Of a stretch of DNA of 64,000 nt, positions 13,191-63,429 are shown in pieces. A program made the translations under genes and the position numbers. The stretch lies in NCBI GenBank assembly GCA_036252695.1, contig GCA_036252695.1_4122.1. The stretch is one strand, 5' to 3'. The notes under the pieces were generated by a model that ran no database searches, had not been told where the DNA came from, and saw nothing but the letters and a program-made list of their open reading frames with translations. Source of the DNA: a phage. Numbering within the stretch: position 1 is the stretch's first letter; each line of letters starts with the position of its first letter.

Positions 13191-13388
13191 ATGATTAGCA
13201 TGAAATCAGTACAAAAACAAATAGAAACATTATCAAAAATTAAACGTAAACAATACTCCTTAGAATATACAATCAATGGTAACTATCATCTAATGAAAGA
13301 AAATAATTTTATAGTCATTGATGAATCATTGCAAATTATTAGTATAGTACTGAAAGCATTAATCAATGACAGAAAAAAATTAAAATAA
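13191..13388 (+). CDS. hypothetical AT-rich small protein
   Basis: ORF track; weak RBS; composition differs from neighbours. Confidence 0.35.
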   Translation: MISMKSVQKQIETLSKIKRKQYSLEYTINGNYHLMKENNFIVIDESLQIISIVLKALINDRKKLK

Positions 13389-13392
13389 TCTA

Positions 13393-13421
13393 TTGACAAT
13401 ATCCTCCAGTACTGGCATAAT
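13393..13421 (+). promoter_or_regulatory. sigma70 promoter with ~300-nt leader
   Basis: -35 TTGACA 13393-13398, -10 CATAAT 13416-13421. Confidence 0.6.
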
Positions 13422-13481
13422 ACTTACATCAAGACGAGAACGTCACTAACCCATAGGGTGCACAAATGTAACTATATAATA

Positions 13482-13558
13482 TCGATCAATAAATGATCAA
13501 AAAAGTACTGGATCAATTTAGCATAAGGAGTATAATTCTGATCAATTCTTGATCAAAG
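13482..13558. repeat. cluster of five GATCAA motifs (Dam-site cluster)
   Basis: GATCAA at 13484, 13495, 13511, 13540, 13551. Confidence 0.7.
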
Positions 13559-13717
13559 GCAATAAACGCAGTTGAATTTATATAGACAATACGAAGGCGT
13601 TACTATCCGTGGTAATGCTGGTGGATATGTAGTATCATGTGGTTTGAATAAGATTAGCACTAGTAGTATTATTGTAGCATTACAGTACTATAGTATTTTT
13701 ATAATGAGGTTAAAATA

Positions 13718-13975
13718 ATGGCTGTAGGATTTGCGAAGGACGGGGCCGAACAAGACGAGATTAACGCAGTGATTCAGGCCGCCGTAAACCACGCTAGAAA
13801 GCAAATTAACGCACAAATAGAATCACTGATACATTGCCTCGACTGTGGCGATAAAATCCCTGAGAATCGCCGCCAGGCTGTTAAGGGATGTAAGTACTGC
13901 ATAACTTGCCAGGAGGATCATGATAGTACTTTTAAAAGAGATCCGCGTAATTGTTGGCATAGATCTATGAGATAA
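13718..13975 (+). CDS. DksA/TraR-family C4 zinc-finger protein
   Basis: CLDCGDKIPENRRQAVKGCKYCITCQ fits the C-x2-C-x17-C-x2-C TraR/DksA zinc-finger pattern. Confidence 0.6.
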   Translation: MAVGFAKDGAEQDEINAVIQAAVNHARKQINAQIESLIHCLDCGDKIPENRRQAVKGCKYCITCQEDHDSTFKRDPRNCWHRSMR

Positions 13976-18418: not shown

Positions 18419-19003
18419 ATGCGTAACTATACTAAATTCATCCGTTCACTTCATGCAATGGAAACCAACAAAGAGATCCTTTCAGCTTGTCGGTTAGCTG
18501 GACTGGAGATCGTCGGTGCGGGTTCTTCCCGTATTGTATTCGCTTTAAATGATCGGTTAGTGATTAAGGTCGCGAATTGTGATGCGGGTGTAGAACAAAA
18601 TGAAACTGAATGTAAGGTATGGAATTTTTTAGATTATGACCGTCCGCACCTTAAACAGTACTTTGCTAAAGTGCATATGCATTTATGCGATCCTGATAAT
18701 CTGTTTATTGTTATGGATCGTTTGAGTACTGCAAGCAAAGGCAGTGTAAAGCATGTAAACGCGTGCAATGAGTTAAAGTACAATATTAAACGTAATACGG
18801 TAGAACGCCATCACCATTTCGCTGATGCTCTCAATCACGTTGATGATACATTATCCACACTAACGATAAGAGATATCAGAAAACAGAATATCGGCCAGGA
18901 TCGCAACGGCTTGATTAAAGTACTTGATTACGGTTTAACCCGCAATATCTGGAATCAGTACTATAAAAAACGTGATGTTAACGCGATAACTATAACACGA
19001 TAA
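18419..19003 (+). CDS. putative minimal Ser/Thr protein-kinase-like protein
   Basis: Gly-rich loop GAGSSRIVF, VIKV lysine, catalytic-loop-like IRDIRKQNI, DFG-like LDYG; RBS aaggag. Confidence 0.45.
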   Translation: MRNYTKFIRSLHAMETNKEILSACRLAGLEIVGAGSSRIVFALNDRLVIKVANCDAGVEQNETECKVWNFLDYDRPHLKQYFAKVHMHLCDPDNLFIVMDRLSTASKGSVKHVNACNELKYNIKRNTVERHHHFADALNHVDDTLSTLTIRDIRKQNIGQDRNGLIKVLDYGLTRNIWNQYYKKRDVNAITITR

Positions 19004-26289: not shown

Positions 26290-26497
26290 CATCACATTAC
26301 AAGAAAGGTTCATACGCATCAACTATGCAATTTCCAAATTAGATGCTACAATAGGATTTCAAAGTCTACCATACAAAACCAGATTGTTATTAGAGTGTGA
26401 AGCTAAGTTGGGTGTACTGTTAGGGACGCAACACCAACAACGATATGTGGAAATCTGGATTGACCTTTTAACCCAAAATATATATGAGAGAATGTAA
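26282..26497 (+). CDS. LGTNYQ-family small protein (A17)
   Basis: LLGTQHQQRYV. Confidence 0.55.
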   Translation: MINITLQERFIRINYAISKLDATIGFQSLPYKTRLLLECEAKLGVLLGTQHQQRYVEIWIDLLTQNIYERM

Positions 26498-58106: not shown

Positions 58107-58148
58107 TAAAAACGCACATGGAGTGCATTAGAAGATCAAGGATAGATC

Positions 58149-62907: not shown

Positions 62908-63429
62908 ATGTCGAAGAAGGATGCTTCGAAAAAACATTCAGTACATTTCAGTACTGGAAAAGATAACTGGACAACTCCCAAAGATTTCTTTGAAGATTTG
63001 GATGAGTTATGGGGATTTACACTTGATGCTGCTTGTGTTGATGAGACTGCATTGTGTGATAATTTTTTCACTCCAGAAGATGATTCACTATCACAGGATT
63101 GGGGAAATAATATAGTTTGGTTGAATCCACCATACAGTGACTTGAAAACTTGGTTATCTAAAGCAGTAGATGCATATAATAACGGGGCAACTGTAGTTAT
63201 TCTTGTACCCTCAAGAACCGACACAATTGCTTTTCAGGATTATGCTGCTAAAATATGTGATTGTATTTGTTTTATTAAGGGAAGATTACGATTTGGTATA
63301 CCAGAAGAACCCGATAAGAAAACAGATTCAGCACCATTTCCTTCGTGTCTGATAGTACTGGATAAGTACTTAACCACTGCTAAAATCAATTATCTTAAAT
63401 CTCTTGGGTTGGTGATGAAGAATTTATGA
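62908..63429 (+). CDS. DNA N6-adenine methyltransferase (small phage Dam-like, NPPY motif)
   Basis: WTTPKDFFEDL...WLNPPYS; (D/N)PPY is catalytic motif IV of amino-methyltransferases; 173 aa. Confidence 0.65.
   Translation: MSKKDASKKHSVHFSTGKDNWTTPKDFFEDLDELWGFTLDAACVDETALCDNFFTPEDDSLSQDWGNNIVWLNPPYSDLKTWLSKAVDAYNNGATVVILVPSRTDTIAFQDYAAKICDCICFIKGRLRFGIPEEPDKKTDSAPFPSCLIVLDKYLTTAKINYLKSLGLVMKNL

Follow-up and report, generated by a model that had tools for sequence, protein, structure and literature searches.

A candidate promoter-operator region with clustered GATC sites in an optional early cassette of Asteriusvirus jumbo coliphages

Methylation-sensitive sites that contain GATC include the OxyR or Lrp sites of agn43, gtr, opvAB and pap, and the TGATCA/G hexamers of P1 pac, which are bound by the pacase; the clusters of TGATCA hexamers in P1 pac were reportedly described by Sternberg and Coulby in 1990. 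A different layout is found in the Pho box, in which two direct repeats of 7 bp, separated by 4 bp of A/T, replace the -35 element. Classical phage promoter-operator arrays have palindromic operators over the -35 element or +1 and, further upstream, an auxiliary operator. At the promoters controlled by SeqA and Dam, such as dnaAp2 of E. coli and pR of lambda, the GATC sites lie about one helical turn apart at a sigma-70 promoter (PMC2912659), and SeqA prefers pairs of GATC on one face of the helix that are separated by ~10 or ~20 nt, with distances between the sites below 50 bp (PMC2691817, PMC2912659).

The locus described here, an array of five GATCAA sites around a predicted internal promoter, P2, was found in a stretch of phage DNA of 64,000 nucleotides, which was analysed at its full length and is called the window below. 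As at dnaAp2 and lambda pR, the GATC sites of the array lie about one turn apart over or beside a predicted sigma-70-type promoter in the DNA of a phage with a Dam-positive enterobacterial host; unlike in those systems, the unit is an oriented 7-mer with a 17-bp palindrome and not the bare GATC, and it is placed in a dispensable early cassette of a lytic jumbo phage. With P1 pac and the OxyR or Lrp sites the array shares a Dam site embedded in a longer sequence and the arrangement of the sites in pairs or groups, its hexamer being nearly the same as that of P1 pac; however, it is not located at a packaging start, has no OxyR or Lrp consensus and, because the phage is lytic, would not be expected to take part in heritable phase variation. 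The stretch TGATCAA-TAAA-TGATCAA has the 7+4+7 layout and the 11-bp period of the Pho box, and the pair of the PBECO4-type allele overlaps the -35 element, whereas the sequence itself is not a Pho box (TGATCA versus TGTCA) and no response regulator is implicated. The perfect 7+3+7 palindrome over the promoter core, together with an imperfect auxiliary copy, is reminiscent of the classical phage promoter-operator arrays, from which the locus differs by the lack of a recognisable repressor gene near the array, the sole gene of the cassette encoding a 48-residue protein. The array is best classed with promoter-operator regions, as one not described before and lying in an early cassette that is dispensable; it is not mentioned in the papers searched on Asteriusvirus phages, and searches of the literature on the motif, or on methylation in such phages, gave nothing relevant.

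The window comes from an Asteriusvirus (121Q/PBECO4-like) jumbo coliphage, and the region is 92-99% identical to the Asteriusvirus jumbo coliphages WPEC5, WPEC3, fEgEco12, 121Q, PBECO4 and others. In vB_Ec-M-J the stretch homologous to the array region is annotated within a direct terminal repeat of 21.5 kb, and the terminal repeat of fEgEco12, of 20,993 bp, has been confirmed by restriction digests (PMC13070987). The array site lies about 12 kb into this repeat of ~21 kb, that is, in mid-repeat and at no terminus. Tiny genes crowd the first ~21 kb of the window, nearly each of them with its own canonical promoter, and 35 stereotyped sigma-70 early promoters were counted in the 22 kb of positions 1-22000, a promoter-rich region comparable to the pre-early one that phage T5 has in its terminal repeat. 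The canonical early promoter reads AAAAAGTAC-TTGCAA or TTGACA, 16-17 nt, TATAAT, then GTTTTACATC(A/G)AG, and most of these promoters are followed on their 3' side by a GC-rich hairpin and a ribosome-binding site. In all, the terminal repeats of Asteriusvirus phages carry about 50 tiny early genes.

An earlier note on this DNA had reported five GATCAA sites and had made their clustering, relative to the genome-wide rate, one of the points on which its reading would stand or fall. All five were recovered on the plus strand, at 13484, 13495, 13511, 13540 and 13551 (array span 13484-13556; start-to-start spacings of the GATC sites of 11, 16, 29 and 11 bp), the last one lying also within an 8-bp palindrome, TTGATCAA, and they are clustered indeed (P ~0.002-0.009), in the window as well as in TH47, a close relative whose complete genome was examined. 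Five GATC in 72 bp occur in the window only at the array, the second densest patch having three in 72 bp (13916-13962). When the 138 GATC of the window were placed at random, at least five fell within 72 bp in 0.2% of the trials, a share that rose to 0.9% when the density was set to the higher one of the first 21.5 kb; the local background, the GATC density of the terminal repeat, with P ~0.01 for the cluster, is taken as the honest figure. In the genome of TH47, assembled to 352,450 bp, the homologous site is the sole cluster of at least four GATC in 72 bp (P = 0.003 under uniform placement), and GATC is the second most avoided palindromic tetramer (581 observed versus 1243 expected, O/E 0.47). 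The depletion in the window is confined to the DNA outside the terminal repeat, with 77 GATC observed versus 86 expected in positions 1-21,500 and 61 versus 146 in the rest. The array is the single place of the genome where the normally avoided Dam target is concentrated, directly on a predicted promoter. The AA flank stands on the same side at 5/5 sites, with a genome-wide flank frequency of 0.108 and a chance of ~1e-5, and therefore the repeated unit is longer than GATC. No match to the array was found in all complete E. coli genomes, so that it was not borrowed from the host, while a scan of IMG/VR for GATCAATNNNTGATCAAA returned at least 120 unrelated contigs, which are chance matches and uninformative. 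The array is real and non-random, and the element is probably functional. A looser GATC-rich patch at 18475-18716, with five sites in 241 bp (six in TH47) of GC-richer DNA, is probably compositional; its 11-bp GATC pair lies in TH47 inside an ORF of 213 codons.

The repeated unit of the array is the oriented 7-mer TGATCAA(W), and it is organised in two copies of a 27-nt module, TATAAT-N3-GATCAAT-N3-TGATCAAA, which has no other copies in the window. Module A (13475-13501, plus strand) reads TATAAT-ATC-GATCAAT-AAA-TGATCAAA, with GATC at 13484 and 13495, and module B (13531-13557, plus strand) reads TATAAT-TCT-GATCAAT-TCT-TGATCAAA, with GATC at 13540 and 13551. The two modules are identical at 21/21 motif positions and at 0/6 spacer positions, which argues for a constraint on the motif and not for a recent duplication. 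A perfect 17-bp palindrome (7+3+7, 0 mismatches), TGATCAA-TTC-TTGATCA, occupies 13539-13555 of module B, over the predicted start of P2, and module A contains an imperfect one, CGATCAA-TAA-ATGATCA, at 13483-13499, with two mismatches (one in TH47); the imperfect copy is located 56 bp upstream of the perfect one in the window type and adjacent to it in the PBECO4 type. Palindromes of this kind with at most one mismatch were found three times in TH47, versus 0.22 expected, and 2/3 of them are in the array; with up to two mismatches allowed, there is no excess over chance genome-wide and no evidence of a regulon. The third copy, GGATCAATTTTTGATCA, is intergenic, at TH47 26414-26430, outside the window, on the 3' side of a terminator-like hairpin and on the 5' side of a late-promoter-like motif, CTAAATAC. 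The TH47, PBECO4 and 121Q alleles all keep its GATC-N7-GATC pair but differ in the A/T-rich spacer, which may hint at a GATC pair as a recognised unit elsewhere, though alone the site is not significant. A further 11-bp GATC pair (GATCAAGGATAGATC), with two mismatches to the 17-bp palindrome, lies at 58134-58148 of the window over a ribosome-binding site and a start codon.

The predicted promoter P2 (13499-13536, plus strand) consists of AAAAAAGTAC at 13499-13508, the -35 hexamer TGGATC at 13509-13514, a 16-nt spacer and the -10 hexamer TATAAT at 13531-13536. It shares its register with the canonical AAAAAGTAC-TTGCAA-16-TATAAT promoters, down to the AAAAAAGTAC prefix, the spacer of 16 nt and the TATAAT hexamer, and it is this positional homology with the canonical early promoters that suggests a promoter here, with a putative start site near 13543. 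The -35 element of the window type is weak (TGGATC, 3/6), and the consensus promoter scan placed P2 below its threshold and gave no call. Relative to the predicted start, the GATC sites would stand at about -60, -49, -33, -4 and +8, that at 13511 being inside the predicted -35 hexamer. On the minus strand, the promoter scan gave two promoter-like matches, TTGATC-16-TATACT (13556 to 13529) and TTGATC-18-TATAGT (13500 to 13471), each with 9/12 matches and as consensus matches only; in both, the -35 element is TTGATC, which is GATCAA read on the opposite strand.

The explanation that we tentatively prefer, judging from this layout, is that the GATCAA sites may be half-sites of a protein-binding operator array around P2, which would control an accessory gene in the dispensable cassette. 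P2 would drive ORF48, the accessory gene of 48 codons, and, by translational coupling, the following DksA/TraR-like gene. The TGATCAA half-sites would be paired one helical turn (11 bp) apart, with the pair of module A at about -60/-49, a single half-site in the -35 hexamer of P2, and the perfect palindromic pair of module B covering -4 to +13. A putative dimeric or oligomeric DNA-binding protein on these half-sites could exclude RNA polymerase from P2, and the same protein could also block the read-through from the upstream promoter P1. Because every half-site contains a Dam target, the occupancy may vary with full, hemi- or no methylation, i.e., between the parental and the newly replicated DNA, and control by DNA methylation or methylation-sensitive binding is possible. 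A sequence-specific binder is favoured by the strictness of the flanks, by the register kept in the modules and by the palindrome over the promoter core in both lineages. What the sequences show directly is the anatomy of the array, its statistics and conservation, the optional nature of its cassette and the coding signature of ORF48, whereas the activity of P2, the binding of a protein to the array and the repression by this binding are inferred. A candidate binder was not found among the ten neighbouring small ORFs, in which the Pfam scans gave no recognisable DNA-binding domain. In an informal comparison by eye, none of the consensus sequences of FNR (TTGAT-N4-ATCAA), IHF (WATCAANNNNTTR), Fur, the Pho box, RutR and OxyR fits the array.

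The comparative evidence consists of three haplotypes, which are two alleles and one recombinant, and represents few independent lineages. In the PBECO4 type the block is ~79% identical overall, has kept the first three GATC and has gained one, so that the array reads TGATCTGATCAA; the gained site completes another pair with the 11-bp spacing and makes TGATCAA-TAC-TTGATCA, a perfect palindrome over the -35 element of P2 (TTGATC in this allele), while module B is missing there. A perfect palindrome thus covers the promoter core in both lineages, that of the window and that of PBECO4, with the same arms and with a different spacer and position. The metagenomic contigs L133 and L134 are recombinants with the three core GATC only, with no perfect palindrome and no module B, and therefore the full array is not required. 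Maintenance of the number of GATC across the haplotypes is not supported, as the window type has five, the PBECO4 type four and the metagenomic type three; three GATC sites, both module A sites included, are invariant in all three haplotypes despite ~21% local divergence. Between the alleles, divergence affects the promoter spacer and the ORF but not the -35 core of P2, the -10 hexamer and an AAAGG motif.

The same data bear on a reading without any dedicated function, in which the array would be a by-product of recombination and local duplication among the dozens of near-identical promoter units of the terminal repeat, carried along with the mosaic cassette. What is left of -10 hexamers and of the ATCAA segments at start sites would then make up the array; as a point against the operator reading, such parts of the local promoter repeats may be the source of modules A and B. 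The canonical promoters do read TATAAT-N7-ATCAAG, with the consequence that ATCAA near TATAAT is native to these repeats; the region is visibly mosaic, with recombination breakpoints and the three haplotypes; the cassette is dispensable, and one natural haplotype is known without module B and the extra site. The neutral decay of a duplication would not, however, yield the contrast between the motif and spacer positions of the modules, the second GATCAA of each module has no counterpart in the canonical promoters, the three core GATC survive the local divergence, and the cluster is unique genome-wide. We consider this reading without a dedicated function quite unlikely.

The earlier note had also drawn attention to a small N6-adenine methyltransferase with an NPPY motif at 62908 and had suggested a SeqA/Dam-responsive element. 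The enzyme is confirmed: the gene (62908-63429, plus strand) encodes 173 aa with the NPPY motif in its translation, and by its match to PF05869 'Dam' (7e-32) the product is a member of this Dam family of N6-adenine DNA methyltransferases. It scores 91.5 bits with TIGR01712, just below the cut-off of 97, and is 31% identical over 105 residues to the Dam of phage T1 of the same family, an identity that does not fix the target specificity. The E. coli host is Dam-positive, so that the array sites would be methylated regardless of the phage enzyme. As to the SeqA/Dam element, the cluster, the Dam-family enzyme and the SeqA-preferred geometry (two 11-bp pairs, with neighbouring sites at most 29 bp apart) hold good, whereas recognition of GATC only does not agree with the TGATCAA(W) flanks, the 27-nt modules and the 17-bp palindrome; flanks free to vary, as would be expected for SeqA, are not what is seen, with AA at all the sites.

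In a pure Dam/SeqA element, the host SeqA would bind to the 11-bp GATC pairs when hemimethylated, or to the clustered sites when fully methylated, and would sequester P2, as at dnaAp2, or modulate it, as at the lambda promoters, while the host Dam and the phage Dam-family enzyme would reset the state. Besides the geometry and the phage enzyme, such an element would be in line with the GATC gained in PBECO4, which makes the second 11-bp pair, with the sites in the predicted -35 hexamer of P2 (TGGATC, or TTGATC in PBECO4) and near its start (13540, at about -4), although P2 itself was not called by the promoter scan, and with a tetramer that is two-fold depleted genome-wide, yet densest at the array. 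Readers of GATC only would leave the flanks, the TATAAT-N3 register and the palindrome unexplained; moreover, the site number is not maintained among the haplotypes, the depletion of GATC is not seen inside the terminal repeat, and the specificity of the methyltransferase is not fixed by its identity to T1 Dam. Such an element is, in our estimation, unlikely, and the operator array bound by a sequence-specific protein, with or without sensitivity to methylation, is preferred.

The array belongs to an optional cassette of 330 bp (13390-13719, plus strand), which comprises P1, a CCCAYNGGGTGC unit, the GATC array, P2 and ORF48, and ends in the right copy (13710-13719, plus strand) of the 10-bp direct repeat TTAAAATAAT. 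The left copy (13380-13389, plus strand) lies at the 3' end of a 65-codon ORF (13191-13388) and marks the left boundary of the cassette. The cassette is present in 27/41 matching phage records, whereas in UE-S1 and ECO103 4-12-1 the alignment shows the whole block to be precisely absent, TTAAAATAAT joining the start codon of the DksA-like gene directly; the coupling partner of this gene is there the 65-codon ORF that precedes it. A direct succession of the neighbouring gene and the DksA-like gene is seen also in SE_PL, a more distant phage of Salmonella. To judge from these genomes, the cassette is dispensable. Each copy of TTAAAATAAT provides a stop codon for the small ORF on its 5' side as well as the ATG with which the DksA-like gene begins, and therefore the TAATG coupling is kept with or without the cassette. 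The 65-codon ORF and ORF48 have no detectable paralogy, so that a simple tandem gene duplication does not account for the cassette.

The stretch between the promoter at 13393 and the TraR/DksA-like gene had been described as a leader of ~300 nt; the promoter and the gene are there, but a plain leader it is not, since it contains a second promoter-like site and a probable gene of 48 codons, and the whole block is optional. P1 (13393-13421, plus strand; TTGACA, 17 nt, CATAAT, with TG before the -10) is one of the 35 stereotyped sigma-70 early promoters, and the DksA/TraR-family C4 zinc-finger gene occupies 13718-13975 on the plus strand (PF01258 1e-11; NF008243 82 bits). ORF48 (13572-13718, plus strand) has 48 codons with a TTG start (GTG in PBECO4), corresponds to gp293 of 121Q (PHROG 38664), and ends with a stop codon that overlaps the ATG of the DksA-like gene (TAATG); AAAGG at 13555-13559 on the plus strand, conserved in the alignments of both alleles, is its likely Shine-Dalgarno sequence. 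Between the window and PBECO4 types the protein is 65% identical, and the differences by codon position are 11/7/19 versus PBECO4 and 2/2/9 versus 121Q; this pattern, and the frame being open in both alleles, support a real gene, which ORF48 probably is. Its homologues are found only in Asteriusvirus, and the AlphaFold model is of low confidence (pLDDT 59).

On the 3' side of P1 lies a repeated unit (13428-13480, plus strand) with the invariant core CCCATAGGGTGC at 13450-13461; the first 21 kb of the window contain ten copies of this unit in all, at 2679(-), 2896(-), 4725(+), 4793(-), 6714(-), 11782(+), 13450(+), 15783(+), 19077(+) and 20998(+). The unit consists of a strong sigma-70 promoter, ~30 nt later the invariant 12-mer CCCAYNGGGTGC, and then a (T)ATCTAT tail; by eye, some copies have a small upstream hairpin with a stem differing between the copies. 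The consensus folding of the ten units gave an invariant CCC/GGG stem of 3-4 bp only, with no covariation and no Rfam match, and the units could be small RNAs or protein-binding sites.

An element acting at the RNA level has been considered too. Because TGATCA is palindromic, the 11-nt pairs form short stem-loops, which would appear in the P1 transcript and, with module B, at the 5' end of the P2 transcript, where the hairpins might stand in for the GC-rich 5' hairpins of the other early promoters and affect mRNA stability or the translation of ORF48. All five GATCAA are on the transcribed sense strand, hairpins are predicted for module A (-4.1 kcal/mol, z = -6.7) and, as a double hairpin, for PBECO4 (-9.4 kcal/mol, z = -2.9), a 7-bp stem is predicted for module B, and the canonical units carry a hairpin at the equivalent position. 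On the other hand, the stems, rich in A and U, are weak, with -4 to -6 kcal/mol and with z = -0.9 for the module B segment and z = -1.9 for the whole leader, a module B hairpin is missing from the 5' UTR in the PBECO4 and L133 alleles, and the arms never vary, so that there are no compensatory changes. In Rfam the whole window gave no match at the gathering threshold, and positions 13380-13730 only a chance-level one (E = 8.9). Both the role in stability or translation and the RNA element as such we regard as improbable.

A cis-acting replication or packaging site, like the GATC clusters of oriC and P1 oriR or the TGATCA clusters of P1 pac, would agree with the TGATCA hexamers in two groups, which resemble P1 pac, and with the AT-rich setting on the 3' side of a strong promoter. 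Against it, the whole block is missing in viable close relatives, and the site is ~12 kb inside the ~21-kb terminal repeat and not at a terminus; the cumulative GC skew is monotonic through the array site, with no strand-skew switch, and the nearest match in the DnaA-box search is 1.4 kb from the array, the count being at the chance level. An origin is rejected on account of the dispensable block, the lack of a GC-skew turn and the lack of nearby DnaA boxes, and a packaging site of the P1 pac type on account of the mid-repeat position and the absence from viable relatives, which makes this kind of function highly improbable.

Returning to the operator array, a more speculative extension of it, which we hold to be doubtful, is a sensor of the replication state in a lytic jumbo phage. 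On the fully methylated parental DNA, ORF48 and the gene of the DksA/TraR-like protein, which binds RNA polymerase, would be transcribed from P2 and by read-through from P1, whereas on the progeny DNA the hemimethylated 11-bp GATC pairs would be bound by SeqA or by a phage protein reading TGATCAA together with the methylation state, and the phage Dam-family enzyme would set the timing. If true, a host-takeover module would be restricted to unreplicated genomes.

The array offers a concrete and easily tested entry to the question of adenine methylation versus a dedicated repressor in the timing of early transcription, with natural variants as ready-made controls, in which the cassette is absent or has five, four or three sites. 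If the array is an ordinary operator, what is learned from it will concern this phage group only; in the case of timing by methylation, it would represent an unusual Dam/SeqA logic in a virulent phage.

Two further features of the composition were observed. GCGC occurs 0 times in the 64-kb window and 0 times in the 352-kb genome of TH47, versus ~172 expected, which looks like the complete avoidance of a 4-bp restriction target. AGTACT, in turn, is strongly over-represented, with 255 copies in the window, concentrated in positions 1-22000, and 917 in TH47 (GTAC O/E 1.37), and its typical context is CAGTACTG directly 5' of the -10 element of the early promoters, or beside the -35 element.
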